A stretch of DNA of 38,717 nt, taken from the UHGV virus genome UHGV-0007863. The stretch is one strand, 5' to 3'. Source of the DNA: a virus. Numbering within the stretch: the first letter of the stretch is position 1; the number at the start of each line of letters is the position of its first letter. The notes under the pieces were generated by a model. That model made no database searches. It was not told the origin of the DNA and worked only from the letters and a program-made list of their open reading frames with translations. Position numbers and translations under genes: made by a program. This document shows, one piece after another, positions 13,820 to 36,142 of the stretch.

Positions 13820-14415
13820 TGATGCCTGCTGAACCTAAAACCTATAAACGCAAATCAACGCAATTTAAGCCACTAACAGCAATGCAGGAGGCTTATTGCC
13901 AGTCATACATCAAAACGCCTGAAAACCAGACTCAGGCAGCGATTAATGCAGGATTCTCCCCAAATACAGCGGCAGTTAAAGCCAGTGTCATGATGCGCGA
14001 TGAACGCATTCAAAAACGGATTGCCGAGTTGATGGAGGAGCGCAACAAACGAATGCGCGTCAGTGCTGATTACGTTCTCATGCGCCTGGTGGAGATCGAC
14101 CAGATGGACGTGATCGACATCCTCAACGACGATGGGAGCCTTAAGCCAATCCGCGAGTGGCCGAAAATCTGGCGCACTACGCTTAGCGGCTTTGATCTGT
14201 CATCGACCATCATGAACATGAACGAGGATTCGATAGAGACAATCCTCAAAAAAATTAAATGGCCTGACAAGGTGAAGAACCTCGAACTGATTGGTAAGCA
14301 CGTCGACGTCAACGCATTCAAAGAACGCCTGGATGTTAATGTGAATGTGACAATTGCTGATCGCATAGCAGCAGCCAGGAAGCGACTCAAAGAACGTCAG
14401 GATGGTAATCAGTGA
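13819..14415 (+). CDS. Terminase small subunit
   Basis: Segment QEAYCQSYIKTPENQTQAAINAGFSPNTAAVKASVMMRDERIQ fits the small-terminase HTH family; true start taken as ATG 13819, since the ORF-track N-terminus is encoded by the operator repeats. Confidence 0.8.
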   Translation: MMPAEPKTYKRKSTQFKPLTAMQEAYCQSYIKTPENQTQAAINAGFSPNTAAVKASVMMRDERIQKRIAELMEERNKRMRVSADYVLMRLVEIDQMDVIDILNDDGSLKPIREWPKIWRTTLSGFDLSSTIMNMNEDSIETILKKIKWPDKVKNLELIGKHVDVNAFKERLDVNVNVTIADRIAAARKRLKERQDGNQ

Positions 14416-15887
14416 CAGATACAGTGTTATCTCCTGAAGAGCAGTTGATCGAGGATATTGCAGGGTTTACTCACGATCCGCTTGGTTATGCCCTCTATGC
14501 GTTCCCGTGGGGGGAAGAGGGGACTGAACTGGCACATGCTACCGGTCCACGTCAGTGGCAGGCCGATGCGTTCCGAGAGATACGTGACCACCTGCAGAAT
14601 CCAGAGATGCGCTATCAGCCGCTTATGCTGGCACGCGCTTCTGGTCACGGTATTGGTAAATCCGCATTCATCTCAATGCTGATCAACTGGGGCATGTCCA
14701 CTTGCGAGGATTGTAAGGTCGTGGTGACCGCCAACACCGACAACCAGCTACGAACGAAGACCTGGCCGGAAATTATCAAGTGGTCGAACCTTGCTATCAC
14801 GAAAGACTGGTTTACCTGTACCGCTACCGCTATGTACAGCAATGATCCTGGGCACGACAAGCGGTGGCGAGCTGACGCAATCCCCTGGTCTGAGCACAAC
14901 ACTGAGGCATTCGCCGGACTACACAACGAGCGCAAACGCATCATCGTGGTATTCGATGAAGCGTCGAACATTGCGGATCTGGTGTGGGAAGTTGCCGAGG
15001 GTGCACTAACTGACGAAGACACTGAGATTATCTGGGTGGCGTTCGGAAACCCGACGCGTAATACCGGACGTTTCCGTGAATGTTTCCGCAAGTATAAACA
15101 CCGCTGGAAAACCGCGCAGATTGACAGTCGGACGGTGGAAGGTACCAACAAACAGCAGTTGCAGAAATGGGTTGATGACTACGGGGAAGACAGCGACTTC
15201 GTTAAAATCCGTGTGCGTGGCATATTCCCTGATGCATCTGAATTGCAGTTTATCCCTACCGGTCTTACTGACGAGGCAATGAAACGGGTGGTAACCGCTG
15301 CGCAGGTTGCACATGCTCCGGTGATAATCGGCGTTGACCCGGCATACTCCGGAGTTGATGACGCTGTGATATACCTGCGGCAGGGGCTACACAGTAAGGT
15401 GCTGTGGACTGGCAACAAGACTACCGACGATCTGATTATGGCGAAGCGTATCGCTGACTTTGAAGACCAGTATCAGGCTGACGCGGTGTTCATCGACTTC
15501 GGTTACGGAACCGGTTTGAAGTCAATCGGTGACGGCTGGGGGCGTACATGGCAACTTGTTCCGTTCGGTGGCGCGTCTACTGACCCGCAGATGCTCAACA
15601 AGCGTGGGGAGATGTTCAATTCATGCAAGACATGGCTGAGGCTTGGCGGCATGCTGGATGACCAGGAAACAGCAGACGACCTGTCGGCGGCAGAGTACAA
15701 AGTTCGAGTGGACGGTAAAATCGTTATCGAACCGAAGGAAGATATCAAGGAGCGGCTTGGGCGTTCGCCTGGTAAAGGCGATGCGCTACTGCTGACGTTT
15801 GCTTTCCCGGTGTCAAAGCGCCTGCGAATTCCCGGGCAGCAGAACCAGCAAGGCAAGGCCATTACAGATTACGATCCCTATGCTTAA
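14412..15887 (+). CDS. Terminase large subunit
   Basis: 491 aa; Walker A-like ASGHGIGKS; acidic nuclease-type C-terminal region; GTG start overlapping the small-subunit stop. Confidence 0.8.
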   Translation: MTDTVLSPEEQLIEDIAGFTHDPLGYALYAFPWGEEGTELAHATGPRQWQADAFREIRDHLQNPEMRYQPLMLARASGHGIGKSAFISMLINWGMSTCEDCKVVVTANTDNQLRTKTWPEIIKWSNLAITKDWFTCTATAMYSNDPGHDKRWRADAIPWSEHNTEAFAGLHNERKRIIVVFDEASNIADLVWEVAEGALTDEDTEIIWVAFGNPTRNTGRFRECFRKYKHRWKTAQIDSRTVEGTNKQQLQKWVDDYGEDSDFVKIRVRGIFPDASELQFIPTGLTDEAMKRVVTAAQVAHAPVIIGVDPAYSGVDDAVIYLRQGLHSKVLWTGNKTTDDLIMAKRIADFEDQYQADAVFIDFGYGTGLKSIGDGWGRTWQLVPFGGASTDPQMLNKRGEMFNSCKTWLRLGGMLDDQETADDLSAAEYKVRVDGKIVIEPKEDIKERLGRSPGKGDALLLTFAFPVSKRLRIPGQQNQQGKAITDYDPYA

Positions 15888-15937
15888 TCCGTTAGCGGGG
15901 ATAATGACGGAGATATCCTCTGGTGAGGATAAAACAA

Positions 15938-15963
15938 AGCCAGCTCATCGGCTGGCTGTTTGT
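15938..15963. terminator. Bidirectional terminator between convergent terminase and minus-strand moron gene
   Basis: AGCCAGC-TCATCG-GCTGGCT with an A-run before and GTTTGT after. Confidence 0.5.
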
Positions 15964-15973
15964 GACATGTCAC
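15962..15973. repeat. 12-bp perfect palindrome GTGACATGTCAC, copy 2 of 3
   Basis: Read directly; abuts the bidirectional terminator. Confidence 0.7.
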
Positions 15974-15977
15974 GGTG

Positions 15978-16349
15978 TTATTGCTCGCTTAACTTCTGCT
16001 TCAGCAAGTAACCTTCAAGCATCCAGATTTTGTTTACAGCATTCTGCCTGGCAATCTTCCGACCAATTTCCGCATCAAAGTTTTCCGGGCTTGCACAGGC
16101 GCTCTCTCCGGTGACGGTGAAGCCGTTGCGCAGCACCAGAACGCAGAACGTCAGCAGAGAAAGTGATTCGTGCGGCTGGTAGTTTACCTCTCCGCCAGTA
16201 TGTTTCGCTTTTATGGCTACGCCAAAGACACCATCTTCTGCTGTGAAATATGCCTCCTGAGCAATAATGCTCTCGATATGGTCTGGCGTAACGCGCGGCG
16301 CGGCTAAACCTTTAGCCTGAATTTCAGATTCAATGTCTTTGTCACTCAT
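15978..16349 (-). CDS. Conserved small phage protein of unknown function, opposite strand to the late operon (moron)
   Basis: 123 aa; AAGGTGAG Shine-Dalgarno; possibly N4 gp49 / Sf6 gp66-like by recollection, unverified. Confidence 0.5.
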   Translation of the reverse strand: MSDKDIESEIQAKGLAAPRVTPDHIESIIAQEAYFTAEDGVFGVAIKAKHTGGEVNYQPHESLSLLTFCVLVLRNGFTVTGESACASPENFDAEIGRKIARQNAVNKIWMLEGYLLKQKLSEQ

Positions 16350-16363
16350 AGTCTATTCTCACC

Positions 16364-16389
16364 TTAAAAAAATGCCCGGCGAACCGGGC
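16364..16389 (-). terminator. Hairpin plus T-run immediately upstream of the 15978-16349 gene
   Basis: GCCCGG-CGAA-CCGGGC with a 7-A run on the plus strand (T-run on the minus strand). Confidence 0.45.
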
Positions 16390-16473
16390 GAACTGGAAGC
16401 AATGAGTTATGCCTTCCGTGGCTGTACTGGTTTACAGCATGAAGTCATCGCAATGGCGTCCTGCTGTAAAAAG

Positions 16474-16509
16474 GGCGGTGATAGTCCTTCAAGTGAAACT
16501 ATCACCGCC
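16474..16509. repeat. Perfect 12-bp inverted repeat GGCGGTGATAGT / ACTATCACCGCC with a 12-nt spacer, about 44 nt downstream of the tRNA 3' end
   Basis: Read directly; likely a processing or termination structure for the tRNA transcript. Confidence 0.6.
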
Positions 16510-16552
16510 AAGCCCCTGGAACTTCTGGCATCACGGTCCTTAGGCGTGATTC

Positions 16553-16629
16553 TGGCGTGGCATGCAGGATTCGAACCTGCGACCAACCGCTTAGAAGGCG
16601 GTTGCTCTGTCCGACTGAGCTAATGCCAC
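16553..16629 (-). tRNA. tRNA-Arg (anticodon UCU), phage-encoded
   Basis: Manual cloverleaf: acceptor GTGGCAT/ATGCCAC, D-arm GCTC-AGTCGGACA-GAGC, anticodon arm ACCGC-CTTCTAA-GCGGT, T-arm GCAGG-TTCGAAT-CCTGC, discriminator G, encoded CCA; 77 nt. Confidence 0.85.
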
Positions 16630-16951
16630 AACGCTGAGAGCACTTAGCCTGTTAAGGCGCCACACTTTGTCGCGGCTCCATAAATGCTCTCATCGTTGTA
16701 CCCTCGTCTCTTCCGAGGCGTCACACCGAATCGCCGGGATGGTGAATCCCCGTGCGCGGAATAAAACCGCTCGACTTGCACATTCCGGCTACCTGGTTCG
16801 TTTGCCCGAGCAAGGGAGGGTGCCCCTTAAACGTATCCAGACCGCTATCGTCGCATGTGCCACACGCCGTACTGCTCAAAATAAAAGCTCACTCCACCTG
16901 TTCAATTTAACGACAAGCCAGTCAGGTTAATAACCGGAATGAACTATTTAC

Positions 16952-16966
16952 TTACCTGAAGGGTAA
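16952..16966. promoter_or_regulatory. Perfect TTACC-TGAAG-GGTAA upstream of the portal operon
   Basis: Read directly; about 90 nt upstream of the ATG at 17057. Confidence 0.6.
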
Positions 16967-17056
16967 TAATTCGTGCATTAAATGTCAACTATCTACGATA
17001 AATAAATCATATGTGGTTAAATTGGTAATAATTTAATTGCGTACGGAGTCATTGAT

Positions 17057-17263
17057 ATGTGCATGGGTAGCTCACCATCAGTGCCTGCAACACCAGAAGT
17101 TCAGGCAGCACCACAGGAGCAGGATGCCGCCGTTGTTGATGCCCGCGACGAAGAAACACGTCGCCGTCGCGCTGCTGCTGGTCGTAGTTCTACGCTGCTT
17201 ACCGGTTCTCAGGGCGACACATCAACCGCTAATACCAGCGGTAAAACGCTGCTTGGTCAGTAA
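17057..17263 (+). CDS. Hypothetical low-complexity small protein upstream of portal
   Basis: 68 aa; its translation initiation region CGGAGTCATTGA(T)ATG is a near-exact copy of the portal's (17265-17280). Confidence 0.4.
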   Translation: MCMGSSPSVPATPEVQAAPQEQDAAVVDARDEETRRRRAAAGRSSTLLTGSQGDTSTANTSGKTLLGQ

Positions 17264-17277
17264 CCGGAGTCATTGAA

Positions 17278-18957
17278 ATGGCGGAAACAACTAAAGAGCG
17301 ATTGAACAAACAGTTCGCACAACTTGAAAGCGAGCGTCAGTCGTTCGAGCCGCACTGGCGCGAGTTGAGTGATTACATCAACCCGCGTGGTTCCCGCTTT
17401 CTGACTTCTGAGGTCAACCGTAACGATCGACGCAATACACGCATTATTGATTCGACCGGGACTATGGCGGCGCGCACTCTCGCCAGCGGCATGATGTCAG
17501 GCATCACAAGCCCCGCCCGTCCGTGGTTTCGCCTGGCTACGCCAGATCCTGAAATGATGGATTATGGCCCTGTTAAGTTGTGGCTTGAGGCGGTGCAGAA
17601 CCGCATGAACGATATGTTCAATAAGTCGAATCTCTACCAGTCTCTTCCGCAGTTATACGGAAGCCTCGGCACATACAGCACTGGTGCAATGGCGGTGCTG
17701 GAGGATGACGAGGACATCATTCGCACAATGCCATTCCCTATAGGCAGTTACTACCTGGCTAACTCACCTCGTGGCAGTGTGGACACCTGTTTCCGCAAGT
17801 TCTCTATGACTGTTCGTCAGCTTGTTCAGGAGTTCGGGCTAAATAACGTCAGCGAATCCGTAAAAAGCATGTGGGAAAGCGGCACCTACGAGAAGTGGAT
17901 TGAAGTGATGCATTCGGTTTACCCGAACATTGACCGCGATACATCGAAGCTGGATAGCAAGAACAAGCCATTCAAATCGGTTTATTACGAGGTTGGTGGC
18001 GATAACGACAAGTTGTTGCGTGAGTCCGGATTCGATGAGTTTCCAATTATGGCTCCGCGCTGGGAAGTTAACGGCGAAGATGTTTATGGATCATCATGCC
18101 CGGGTATGCTGGCGCTTGGACCTGTTAAGGCATTGCAGCTTCTCCAGAAGCGCAAGTCGCAGTTGATTGATAAAGCCACCAATCCGCCGATGGTTGCTCC
18201 GACTTCCCTCAAGAATCAGCGCGCCTCCCTTCTTCCTGGCGACATCACGTATATCGATCAGATTACTGGTCAGGATGGCTTCAGGCCTGCTTATCTGGTT
18301 AACCCCAGTACAGCAGATTTGGTGGCAGACATTCAGGACACCCGTCAAATCATTAACAGCGCCTACTTTGTCGATCTGTTCATGATGTTGCAGAACATCA
18401 ATACCCGCTCGATGCCTGTTGAAGCGGTAATCGAAATGAAAGAAGAAAAACTTCTGATGTTGGGGCCGGTTCTGGAGCGTCTGAACGACGAATGTCTTAA
18501 TCCTCTCATTGACCGCGCTTTCTCGATGATGGTGCGTAAAAACATGCTGCCGCCACCGCCTGACGCGATGGAAGGTATGCCCCTGAAGGTCGAATACATT
18601 TCCGTCATGGCTCAGGCGCAGAAGTCTATCGGCCTGTCCAGTCTGGCGTCTACGGTCAACTTCATTGGTCAACTTGCGCAAGCGAAACCAGAAGCTCTCG
18701 ACAAACTCAACGTTGATCAGGCGATCGATGCATTCGCTGATATGTCCGGAGTGTCTCCAACCGTCATTGTTCCGCAGGAACAGGTTGAGCAGGCTCGCCA
18801 GCAACGGGCACAGCAGCAACAGCAGCAACAAATGATGGCGATGGGGATGGCGGCGGCACAGGGTGCCAAGACGCTAAGCGAAGCTAAAACTTCGGATCCG
18901 AGTGTTTTGTCAGCTATGGCGAATGCAGTTAGTGGTCAGGGTGGGCAATCACAATGA
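17278..18957 (+). CDS. Portal (head-to-tail connector) protein, T7 gp8-like by size and position
   Basis: 559 aa; first large gene after terminase; Gln-rich C-terminus; followed by scaffold and capsid genes. Confidence 0.7.
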   Translation: MAETTKERLNKQFAQLESERQSFEPHWRELSDYINPRGSRFLTSEVNRNDRRNTRIIDSTGTMAARTLASGMMSGITSPARPWFRLATPDPEMMDYGPVKLWLEAVQNRMNDMFNKSNLYQSLPQLYGSLGTYSTGAMAVLEDDEDIIRTMPFPIGSYYLANSPRGSVDTCFRKFSMTVRQLVQEFGLNNVSESVKSMWESGTYEKWIEVMHSVYPNIDRDTSKLDSKNKPFKSVYYEVGGDNDKLLRESGFDEFPIMAPRWEVNGEDVYGSSCPGMLALGPVKALQLLQKRKSQLIDKATNPPMVAPTSLKNQRASLLPGDITYIDQITGQDGFRPAYLVNPSTADLVADIQDTRQIINSAYFVDLFMMLQNINTRSMPVEAVIEMKEEKLLMLGPVLERLNDECLNPLIDRAFSMMVRKNMLPPPPDAMEGMPLKVEYISVMAQAQKSIGLSSLASTVNFIGQLAQAKPEALDKLNVDQAIDAFADMSGVSPTVIVPQEQVEQARQQRAQQQQQQQMMAMGMAAAQGAKTLSEAKTSDPSVLSAMANAVSGQGGQSQ

Positions 18958-34012: not shown

Positions 34013-36142
34013 ATGACGGTCTCAACCGAAGTTGACCACAACGAATACACCGGTAACGGCGTTACGACATCGTTTCCGTATACTTTTCGAATTTTCAGAA
34101 AATCAGACCTGGTTGTTCAGGTGTCTGACCTGAACGGGAACGTAACAGAATTGGTCCTGGATACCGGTTATACGGTAACTGGGGCGGGCACTTATAGTGG
34201 CGGTTCTGTGGTTCTTCTGTCTCCGCTTGCTACTGGATGGCGAATTACGATAGATCGTGTGCTTGATGTAGTGCAGGAGACAGACCTTCGCAATCAGGGA
34301 AAATTTTTCCCCGAAGTGCATGAAGATGCCTTTGACTACCTGACGATGCTGATCCAGCAATGTTTTGGGTGGTTCAGACGTGCATTGATGAAGCCCTCTC
34401 TGCTTGCAAAATATTACGATGCAAAGCAAAACAGAATTTCTAACCTTGCAGATCCATCACTTGAGCAGGATGCTGTAAATAATCGCTCAATGCGTAATTA
34501 TGTCGATGCTGCAATCGCCGGGGTTGTTGGTGGTTTTGGTTGGTTTATTCAGTATGGTTCTGGGGCTGTGCACCGAACGTTCCAGGATAAGATGAGAGAC
34601 ACCATTAGTGTTCGTGATTTTGGTGCAAAAGGAGACGGCATAACAGATGATACTGTAGCAATTCAAAATGCTATTAATGCAGTACCAGAAGGGGCTATAC
34701 TTGGATTTTATGGTGGTGAATTTGTTTTTGATAAGGTTGAATTGTTTAAGCCAATAACATTAGTTGGTGATGCAACGTTAATTCACAACGGATTTAGAAT
34801 AAAATCTAGCAGAATCCGATCACTTTTATCTGGCGTTCAGAAATGCAAGGATTACTCCGAGTCTTCAAGAGCATTTTATTGCTATGCAAATGAAGACCAA
34901 AGAGATTATGACGATATTCAGATTTTATTTAATAGATTTGAAGGTTTCTTTTACTCTACGGCATTTGTTGCAAAAAACTATTATTTGGAGAATGACCCTA
35001 ATTCAAGAATTGTCAAAAACACAAAAGTAATAGGGTGTACATCAGTTGCTCCTGATTCTGTAAATGCCGGTCATTTTCAACATATAGGCGTTACAAATGC
35101 TGAAACATCACATAACTCAACTTATGGCGGACAAAATGCAACATCATACAACTTCATTAACCAGAATGGATTTGTAAGGATTATAGGAAATTATGACCAT
35201 AACAATAGCTATGGTTCATGTGAGCTTGAGAACTCAATGGTGAGTAACTCAGTCATATCAGGTAATACGTTTTCGTCATATTTATGGGTGGATGATACAA
35301 GTAATGTTACTATTTCTGGAAATACAGTTTCATCAGGGATCAAAGTAACATCGCAAACTGACGATGTTCATAATATAACCATATCAGCAAATACCACAAA
35401 ACGGATTACTATAGAGCAATTTGGAGAATCTCCAACAGGTCTGGTATATGGTGCATTAATTTCCTGCAACACTATTACTGGCGACAGTGATGGAAGTTCA
35501 GACATTTTATGTACGTCACTTGTTACAGGTGAAATTTCATCAAATTATTGTCATGGATCAGAAAAAAATATATCAATTGTCCGCCTGGATTCTTCTGATA
35601 TAACCGTTAGAAACAATAAAGGAAACAAAGGATTACTTACAATAAGTAACGATGGTGGAAGGATAATTGAATATGGCAATGATTCTATGGTTCTGTCTGG
35701 AAGCATAGATAGCAGACATATACATAATTTATTACATCCAGACACATCGTATTTAGATCTACCGGGGAAATATCTGCACGGAACTAAATATACTGGCAGT
35801 ATCCCCCCCGGTTCCACAGGAACTGTATCACTTCAAATACCATCAGGGGCAAGCCTTGTTTTCAGGGGGGTTTCTATATGGGTTCTAATTAGAGATGTTA
35901 GCAATAACAATATATCGTCATTCAGAATTGATGGTTCATATAGAGTTGTTGGTGGAAGTGTTGGTCTTAGTTTTGCTGATGCTTATTCGAAACTCGGGGT
36001 GGATGCAAACTCTATAACAGTGTCAAACAATAACAGCACTTCTGACAATATCAGCATAGCAATTAAAAACACAGATTCATCAAAAACCCTTCAGGTTACT
36101 GTTATGCCGGAGGTTTCAAGCAGGTTAGGTATTGAGGAATAG
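34013..36142 (+). CDS. Tail fiber / tailspike with T7 gp17-like N-terminal adaptor domain and beta-helix-like, AT-rich distal domain
   Basis: 709 aa; N-terminus parallels the T7 tail-fiber N-terminal pattern; distal part has repeats such as NVTISGNTVSSGIKV...NITISANTTK; base composition turns AT-rich from about 34600. Confidence 0.75.
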   Translation: MTVSTEVDHNEYTGNGVTTSFPYTFRIFRKSDLVVQVSDLNGNVTELVLDTGYTVTGAGTYSGGSVVLLSPLATGWRITIDRVLDVVQETDLRNQGKFFPEVHEDAFDYLTMLIQQCFGWFRRALMKPSLLAKYYDAKQNRISNLADPSLEQDAVNNRSMRNYVDAAIAGVVGGFGWFIQYGSGAVHRTFQDKMRDTISVRDFGAKGDGITDDTVAIQNAINAVPEGAILGFYGGEFVFDKVELFKPITLVGDATLIHNGFRIKSSRIRSLLSGVQKCKDYSESSRAFYCYANEDQRDYDDIQILFNRFEGFFYSTAFVAKNYYLENDPNSRIVKNTKVIGCTSVAPDSVNAGHFQHIGVTNAETSHNSTYGGQNATSYNFINQNGFVRIIGNYDHNNSYGSCELENSMVSNSVISGNTFSSYLWVDDTSNVTISGNTVSSGIKVTSQTDDVHNITISANTTKRITIEQFGESPTGLVYGALISCNTITGDSDGSSDILCTSLVTGEISSNYCHGSEKNISIVRLDSSDITVRNNKGNKGLLTISNDGGRIIEYGNDSMVLSGSIDSRHIHNLLHPDTSYLDLPGKYLHGTKYTGSIPPGSTGTVSLQIPSGASLVFRGVSIWVLIRDVSNNNISSFRIDGSYRVVGGSVGLSFADAYSKLGVDANSITVSNNNSTSDNISIAIKNTDSSKTLQVTVMPEVSSRLGIEE

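Follow-up and report, generated by a model that had tools for sequence, protein, structure and literature searches.

In lambda, the nut sites are laid out as boxA, a spacer and boxB. Within Bacillus eps operons, EAR, a conserved RNA of ~120 nt with a pseudoknot, promotes read-through of distal terminators. The put elements of HK022 and HK639 are RNAs that bind RNA polymerase and suppress terminators in cis; mutations affecting the zinc-binding domain of its beta' subunit prevent this. These RNAs are found directly past the early-left promoter of lambdoid phages that have no N protein (PMC9378689). Here we describe a structured RNA family whose lambdoid members occupy the same position, based on a copy in the virus genome UHGV-0007863 (hereafter the window, meaning the whole stretch of 38,717 nucleotides; coordinates refer to it, and the RNA is encoded on its minus strand). 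A preliminary description of this DNA had noted a tRNA gene followed by hairpins, and suggested that the sequence upstream of the tRNA (16630-16950) might hold a promoter, a degraded second tRNA or a small RNA. The last of these guesses came closest: 16873-16629 (-) forms a conserved multi-helix RNA of ~245 nt (165–245 nt across the family), which also exists apart from the tRNA in lambdoid and P1-like phages. The promoter guess holds for a promoter-like site at the far end of the spacer, not for the ~245 nt themselves, and no degraded tRNA was found there by either ARAGORN or the Rfam tRNA model.

A covariance model built from relatives of the window sequence (R1) matched the conserved core, 16694-16873 (-), with 138.9 bits (E = 1.5e-41). 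This is the single copy in the window, with no second one on the PR side or elsewhere in it. In an alignment of ten copies, long blocks are invariant, and the stretches between them vary in length and show changes in compensating pairs. We counted pairs in a 36-sequence alignment covering 33 pairs (1,179 cells) in helices P1, P2, P4 and P5 and two proposed pseudoknots, PK1 and PK2; P3, a variable hairpin between an invariant 19-mer and P4, lies outside the modelled helices. Pairing was found in 95.8% of cells, compared with 23–45% when the 3' partners were shifted by one, two or three columns. Thirteen of the 33 pairs change on both sides (86 cells), compensatory changes occur in each of P1, P2, P4 and P5, and the observed covariation score was reached by 0 of 500 shuffles. 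Folding of the single sequence gave z-scores of -0.58 (minus strand) and -1.75 (plus strand) and was uninformative. We assigned the RNA to the minus strand because its G-U pairs work only there, and because the covariation and the same-strand tRNAs described below agree with that orientation. The spacer is GC-rich and non-coding, as first proposed (52.6% G+C in 16630-16950 and 59.4% in the RNA core vs 48.8% for the window), and its open reading frames (ORFs) do look spurious, with homologue indels that are not multiples of three and changes that fall in compensating pairs. We regard it as very nearly certain that this is a real, conserved, structured RNA family.

The core begins with P1 (16849-16869, -), a hairpin of 7 bp (CGGCGUG/UGCGACG) with a 7-nt loop, UGGCACA (16862-16856); one of its pairs is G-C in 18 sequences and A-U in 17. 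In the proposed PK1 (-), the loop bases GCACA would pair with UGUGC (16782-16778) inside the 19-mer. This interaction is 100% paired, with one G-U variant and no covariation, and is thus compatible with the data. P2 (16788-16845, -) pairs GCGGUCUGG (16845-16837) with CCAGGUAGC (16796-16788) and closes a variable apical domain. It shows compensatory changes of the types CG/UA and GC/AU, and rare variants of a near-invariant GGUAGCC favour CGG/CCG pairing at its base. After P2 comes the invariant 19-mer GGUAGCCGGAAUGUGCAAG (16793-16775, -), which in its DNA form, GGTAGCCGGAATGTGCAAG, occurs exactly in at least 120 viral contigs, yielding 112 distinct versions and 46 representatives below 90% identity. 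P4 (-) is a GGGA/UCCC hairpin (16750-16747 with 16739-16736) with a 7-nt loop, UUCACCA, and compensatory change at three of its four pairs; together with PK2 (-) it spans 16724-16750. PK2, also proposed, joins the P4 loop bases CACC to GGUG (16727-16724) and covaries, the pairing becoming AACC/GGUU in 2H10-type copies. The core ends with P5 (16702-16718, -), a CCUCG/CGAGG hairpin with a GAAGAGA loop, in which four of five pairs show compensatory change.

Beyond the core, a long stem, P6 (16629-16698, -), pairs CAACGAUGAGAGCAUUU (16698-16682) with AAGUGCUCUCAGCGUUG (16645-16629) and closes a variable insert; in the window the stem ends on G1 of the tRNA. We judged P6 by duplex energies computed sequence by sequence, as it exists in two subtypes one base apart in register. 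A duplex of -12.6 to -24 kcal/mol, measuring 44–350 nt end to end, is kept in 29 of 46 representatives despite their differing sequences, among them the pairing variants GAGAGCAUU/AGUGCUCUC, GAGAGCGCACU/AGUGCGCUC and AAAAGGCGUU/AGCGCCGUUU, and P6 is also present in the minimum-free-energy fold of the window sequence. The insert, equivalent to 16646-16681 in the window, sometimes carries tRNA-like T-arm hairpins, as in the SPN1S-type loci L010 and L017 (e.g., CUGGUUCAAUUCCAG). One locus (L108) holds a near-complete pseudo-tRNA there; ARAGORN calls neither the hairpins nor this pseudo-tRNA. The apex of P6 and the GUUGUGG junction look like hot spots of tRNA gain and loss. The sequence GGUGGAGUGAGCUUUUAUUUUGAG (16898-16875, -), upstream of the core, resembles the 3' strand of P6 and is represented by GGAGUGCGCUUUCAGGUGUG in relatives. 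The Uetakevirus core is thus flanked by imperfect direct repeats, which may stem from an old duplication or serve as alternative pairing partners.

A similarity search with 16630-16960 recovered copies of 96–99% identity in phages of the genus Uetakevirus and copies of ~80% identity, not accompanied by tRNA-Arg, in the lambdoid phages 2H10, cdtI, mEp460, mEp390, Stx2c and some Stx2a phages, as well as in P1, P7, D6, SJ46 and several Klebsiella, Enterobacter and "Stenotrophomonas" phages. The phages found in this way have hardly any annotation at the position of the RNA. Among complete RefSeq E. coli genomes the RNA is present in 1,840 of 5,426, at 2,472 places, 554 of them on plasmids, and all 40 RefSeq rows that we sampled had "none" as the annotation over it. 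Exact-word scans of one genome per species placed it essentially only in Enterobacterales (Escherichia, Citrobacter, Klebsiella, Kosakonia, Enterobacter, Erwinia and others). Exact 18-mer matches in Azonexus and in Bacteroides and Firmicutes metagenome-assembled genomes were rejected, as the covariance model failed on them or gave only ~11 bits. The family is confined to temperate phages of Enterobacterales. In Rfam 15, no family reached its gathering score over 16630-16950 and none overlapped the core even at E <= 10; on 14 related loci, Rfam matched tRNAs, plus C4, isrK and STnc100 elsewhere, and nothing on the RNA element. The full-text literature that we searched contained no description of the RNA; subscription literature lay outside that search, so a prior description is possible. 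The RNA is apparently uncatalogued.

Two further loci are of note for the copy number and loss of the RNA. Locus L031 carries a degenerate tandem second copy (129 bits, with an altered 19-mer) ~740–905 nt downstream of the first, past an insertion whose coding strand appears to be the opposite one. In E. coli K-12, no copy is present in the prophage CPS-53 (L164, 2466000-2480000): yfdP-yfdT (yfdPQRST) are kept, and the repressor, the promoter region and the RNA have been lost, with short GATTTTGACGGGTCA-like tandem repeats upstream of yfdP.

We examined the surroundings of the RNA at 133 loci. A tRNA-Arg(UCU) lies directly downstream in 29 and a tRNA-Ile2(CAU) ~15 nt upstream in 17, each of these 46 adjacent tRNAs being on the RNA strand; the other 87 loci have no nearby tRNA. 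The RNA is always on the strand of the genes that follow and usually lies just past a promoter-like site. In lambdoid phages the order is a cI-like repressor gene (phrog_4), a strong terminator, a promoter-like site with operator-like symmetry and then the RNA, followed by 300–450 nt with no convincing ORF and by yfdP-type or phrog_14171 genes and genes for YfdQ-like or ParB-like proteins. No N-type antiterminator was found among the downstream ORFs examined in the lambdoid loci, and the related phage LLS has been described in a 2025 paper as having no N and perhaps a put-like RNA (PMC12315714). The P1 copy is found within the ban operon, which is under C1 control, with trnI on one side and ban on the other; here the promoter upstream of the RNA is annotated as repressor-controlled. 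On the other side of the immunity region, 2H10-type lambdoids with the RNA at their early-left promoter have isrK and C4 antisense RNA genes by the antirepressor (L003, 5286-5474; L022, 2538-2726).

The window itself is a phiV10-like Uetakevirus, judged by sequence: 15900-17100 shares 98.8% identity with Escherichia phage phiV10 and with O157 typing phages 9 and 10. In these phages the RNA follows a promoter-like site and a leader, and is itself followed by, usually, a tRNA, then a terminator (T1), a 77-nt interval, a second terminator (T2) and a cargo gene. In the window, the predicted sigma-70 promoter-like site (16960-16988, -), read from the sequence, has a -35 element TTGACA (16988-16983) and a -10 element TACCCT (16965-16960) separated by 17 nt; it scores under the threshold of a consensus scanner. 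The phiV10-type loci have such a site, TTGACA-N17-TACCTT, 89 nt ahead of helix P1. Between the predicted start and the core, a 5' leader would occupy 16874-16955 (-). The whole, a conserved non-coding block from the promoter-like site through the ~80-nt leader, the RNA and the tRNA to the two terminators, runs from 16988 to 16364 (-) and ends ahead of a swappable cargo gene.

Both hairpins past the tRNA, reported earlier as a perfect 12-bp inverted repeat and as a hairpin with a T-run, are present and have the features of intrinsic terminators (a G+C-rich hairpin and a U-tract on the transcribed strand); their function is predicted. T1 (16467-16509, -) has the 12-bp perfect stem (16509-16474; 14 pairs when G-U is counted) followed by CUUUUU, and its stem covaries among Uetakeviruses, as in GGCGGUGAUAG, GGCGGUACCAG and GGCGGUGGCAG, each with a matching 3' strand. 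T2 (16364-16389, -) consists of the G+C-rich hairpin GCCCGGUUCGCCGGGC (16389-16374) and the U-tract AUUUUUUU (16373-16364). All 19 Uetakevirus-type representatives have a strong terminator between the RNA and the cargo gene, which is T2. In the window (AUUUUUUUAAGGUGAGAAUAGACUAUG) and in most relatives, the T2 U-tract continues into the cargo-gene ribosome-binding site and therefore leaves no space for a separate promoter past T2. The T1–T2 segment (16390-16466, -; 77 nt) contains the invariant stretches GACGCCAUUGCGAUGAC and GCUGUAAAC and retains 72–99% identity across Uetakeviruses of Escherichia, Salmonella, Klebsiella and Enterobacter, including those that have no tRNA. A small upstream ORF in this segment (AUG after AGGA) was rejected, as its start is kept while its frame and stop are not conserved. 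We also rejected a DicF match at T1 (16.5 bits vs a gathering score of 48), and other weak Rfam matches to DicF, RyhB and mir families, which correspond to terminator hairpins. The cargo gene (15978-16349, -), the reverse-strand gene of unknown function in the preliminary description, encodes a 123-amino-acid member of Pfam family PF13876, Phage_gp49_66, the N4 gp49/Sf6 gene 66 family (E = 2.4e-35; 121.3 bits vs a cut-off of 27). In relatives such as TL-2011b unrelated genes take its place. The leader, including the T1–T2 segment, is conserved across Escherichia, Salmonella, Klebsiella and Enterobacter phages, and only the gene past T2 is swapped. The term moron island, which had been applied to the entire unit, thus suits the gene past the second terminator; the RNA, the tRNA and both terminators form a conserved block. 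In epsilon15, about the first 50 nt of the RNA are left (P1 and half of P2), there is no tRNA, and the terminator and cargo gene are kept.

How does this RNA compare with the described elements? Like put, it is non-coding and structured, with no dedicated phage protein partner nearby, and the lambdoid members share the position of HK022 and HK639 put, although the window copy, in a Uetakevirus, does not. In both, the first hairpin has the short string CGGCG...CGUCG at its base, one of the pairs being G-U. They differ in size and fold, put having two stem-loops in ~70 nt (126 nt in the HK639 annotation) and the RNA six helices and two proposed pseudoknots in 165–245 nt. Unlike put, the RNA has no second copy past PR, and it is also found in P1-like and Uetakevirus genomes. 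Homology to put was rejected: with filters off, R1 scored no higher than 6.6 bits on the loci of HK022 putL and of the annotated HK639 put RNA, and the resemblance in sequence (ACGGCG...AUGCGUCG) was not significant, as 32–476 of 1,000 shuffles scored as high. By this comparison the RNA may work like put, and it does not appear to be a put RNA.

A likeness to lambda nut is seen in many copies, in which the 3' strand of P6, UGCUCU(U/C), is followed by GUUGUGGUGAAU and then by a hairpin with a GGCUGA loop, at the same position in the early-left transcript. In contrast to nut, the boxA-like strand is base-paired in P6, no N-like gene was seen among the downstream ORFs examined, and in the window the tRNA replaces the hairpin; a good 13-nt boxA (<= 3 mismatches) was found past the core in 2 of 118 loci. 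The arrangement of GUUGUGGUGAAU and a 5–6 bp hairpin with conserved GGCUGA loop past P6 was seen in L008, L011, L020, L022, L029 and L062. The stem of this hairpin covaries (GCGCA/UGCGC, GCACA/UGUGC and GGCGG/CCGCC), and its place in the window is taken by the tRNA, from 16629 downward. The placement of the P1 copy between trnI and ban resembles that of EAR, which differs in belonging to another phylum and in sequence and fold, with no Rfam match for the RNA.

Our tentatively favoured hypothesis is a leader RNA that acts in cis and lets elongation resist termination, a reading of sequence and position to which we give somewhat more weight than to any other without considering it probable. As it emerges and folds, the RNA would act on the complex that transcribes it; its target would be a host component that is conserved, in the simplest case RNA polymerase itself or an elongation factor, and elongation would become resistant to termination, or to Rho. 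In lambdoid prophages with no N, transcription would thereby be carried through the long untranslated early-left leader, and in the window phage through T1 and T2 into the cargo gene. RNase P cleavage at the 5' end of the tRNA (16630/16629) would separate the RNA from the tRNA, which would be a passenger supplying AGA decoding for late genes. A conserved host partner is suggested because the RNA is highly constrained and strand-specific and no phage protein is consistently encoded beside it. We favour an effect in cis because the RNA takes the nutL/putL position in lambdoids that have no N, because it can lie inside an operon, as in P1, because no terminator belonging to the core recurs at a fixed distance or a fixed 3' end, and because the conserved two-terminator leader precedes a cargo gene with no space for a promoter.

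Several observations weigh against this hypothesis. The lambdoid early-left operons contain no excess of sense intrinsic terminators (18 sense vs 68 antisense in 58.6 kb), and therefore any termination suppressed there would have to be Rho-dependent, which is not predictable from sequence. There is one copy per phage, with none on the PR side, unlike the putL and putR of HK022, and the RNA has no detectable relation to put. Epsilon15 keeps its terminator and cargo gene despite having lost most of the RNA. Finally, the tight junction with a tRNA in 46 of 133 loci and the long P6 would equally suit a stable RNA excised to act in trans.

Such an RNA is the strongest rival, unlikely in absolute terms and nearly as likely as the cis-acting leader. 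Its release from the early transcript would take RNase P, cutting at the adjacent tRNA, and RNase III or RNase E, cutting at P6 or close to it, and the RNA would bind a conserved host target. Candidates for this target would be the ribosome, a protein of defence or RNA processing, and RNA polymerase that is not on the template of the RNA itself. Processing of the same-strand tRNA joined to the RNA in those 46 loci would set defined ends, P6 ends exactly at G1 of the tRNA, and the Uetakevirus and BUCT708-type layout of promoter, RNA, (tRNA) and strong terminator resembles that of a free-standing RNA gene. Very long invariant single-stranded blocks such as the 19-mer would suit recognition by a conserved partner, and ROOL and GOLLD, other large phage-borne RNAs, also tend to adjoin tRNAs. 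However, 87 of the 133 loci have no nearby tRNA, most lambdoid loci have same-strand genes rather than a terminator after the RNA, and in one locus (L074) an ORF with a ribosome-binding site begins ~25 nt past P5.

The invariant junctions and loops, covarying stems and two pseudoknots would also be typical of a ligand-binding aptamer, and the RNA lies at the 5' end of early operons, past promoter-like sites by a phage repressor gene or operators; in P1, the sequence right after the core provides the GGAG ahead of the ban start codon. A cis-regulatory leader of this other kind, either a riboswitch-like sensor through which a metabolite or signal gates the early genes or an element of mRNA stability or translation, is nevertheless improbable in our estimation, as no expression platform is conserved (P6, two other 3' modules or an ORF directly follow P5, depending on the subfamily) and the core overlaps with no terminator or sequestered ribosome-binding site. 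A ribozyme, self-cleaving or RNA-processing, that trims the early transcript or the tRNA precursor could likewise be suspected from the compact fold, with its two pseudoknots and invariant joining regions, and from the adjacency to tRNAs; several ribozyme classes are found in a phage setting. We consider this highly improbable: no Rfam 15 ribozyme matched even at E <= 10, the sequence bears no mark of a cleavage site, and host RNase P already explains the processing of the tRNA. Least credible of all, to the point of being negligible, is that the spacer has no function of its own and is either promoter and leader sequence or the remains of a tRNA or protein gene. In favour of this are the promoter-like site at the upstream end and the small ORFs once annotated in the region in phiV10 and other records. 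This idea is refuted by the 138.9-bit match and the 13 compensatory pairs; in addition, the RNA is conserved without a tRNA in unrelated phage lineages, homologue indels break the reading frame, and the spacer gives no tRNA signal.

The tRNA gene itself (16553-16629, -) was identified as tRNA-Arg with anticodon UCU (TCT) and an encoded 3' CCA, in agreement with the cloverleaf first noticed. ARAGORN found one tRNA in the window, with anticodon tct and a sequence ending in ...GCCACGCCA, and Rfam RF00005 matched it over its full length with 73.3 bits (gathering score 29), the tRNA alone passing a gathering score in the window. It is phage-encoded and not host DNA, as had been proposed: its flanks are 98.8% identical to phiV10, and it shares ~79% identity with E. 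coli argU, differing at about one in five positions, and is therefore a phage-type tRNA. It also shows 92% identity, over 65 nt, with the tRNA-Arg of Synechococcus phage S-RIM2, and has matches in hundreds of cyanophage records. The average frequency of AGA in E. coli is ~2 per 1,000 codons. AGA makes up 5.7 per 1,000 codons in the window ORFs, and 15 of the 57 AGA codons lie in the late ORF 34013-36142 (+). This ORF of 709 amino acids has 15 AGA and 23 AUA codons, far above every other ORF in the window, and would be the chief beneficiary of a rare-codon tRNA. A codon-supplement role is plausible and unremarkable. Like argO/ileZ of Stx phages and trnI of P1, the window tRNA reads a rare codon, in this case AGA; the tRNA-Ile2(CAU) beside the P1 copy of the RNA reads the rare AUA. 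In this comparison the window tRNA has nothing unusual about it. The tRNA is an ordinary rare-codon helper, already annotated in relatives (O157 typing phages 9 and 10, phiv142-3 and SPN9TCW), and phage ZX5 was reported to have "one tRNA" (PMC9782041).

The unit formed by the RNA, the tRNA and the cargo gene sits between, and on the opposite strand from, the genes for the large terminase (14412-15887) and the portal or head-to-tail joining protein (17278-18957), both assigned by transfer from the phiV10 annotation, which bears out the location originally given for it. Another terminator hairpin (15938-15957) lies between the converging terminase and cargo genes; our scan placed it on the minus strand, whereas phiV10 annotates the matching site as plus. 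A 96-amino-acid ORF at 16333-16623 (+), equivalent to PhiV10p04, runs antisense to the tRNA and both terminators. ORFs of this type are annotated as hypothetical proteins in phiV10, TL-2011b and SPN1S, and the ORF is almost certainly a spurious gene call.

At its most ambitious, our proposal is that an undescribed class of structured phage RNA reprograms a conserved piece of host machinery, RNA polymerase being the most plausible, and so stands in for N by means of RNA alone, in a form structurally unrelated to put, at early promoters of the unrelated lambdoid, P1-like and Uetakevirus lineages; we put this forward as a speculative possibility. How lambdoid prophages with no N pass their early operons is an open question, and the RNA sits where such an element must be. 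It is present in the classic, tractable phages P1 (upstream of ban) and phiV10, and its covariation-backed structure allows precise disrupting and compensating mutants to be designed. If RNA polymerase is indeed modified, the family would represent a second, independent RNA route to processive antitermination in E. coli and, if so, a compact genetic part for engineering. Even with no effect on RNA polymerase, it is a widespread uncatalogued structured RNA in E. coli, among the commonest, and its absence from K-12 is a possible reason that it stayed unnoticed.

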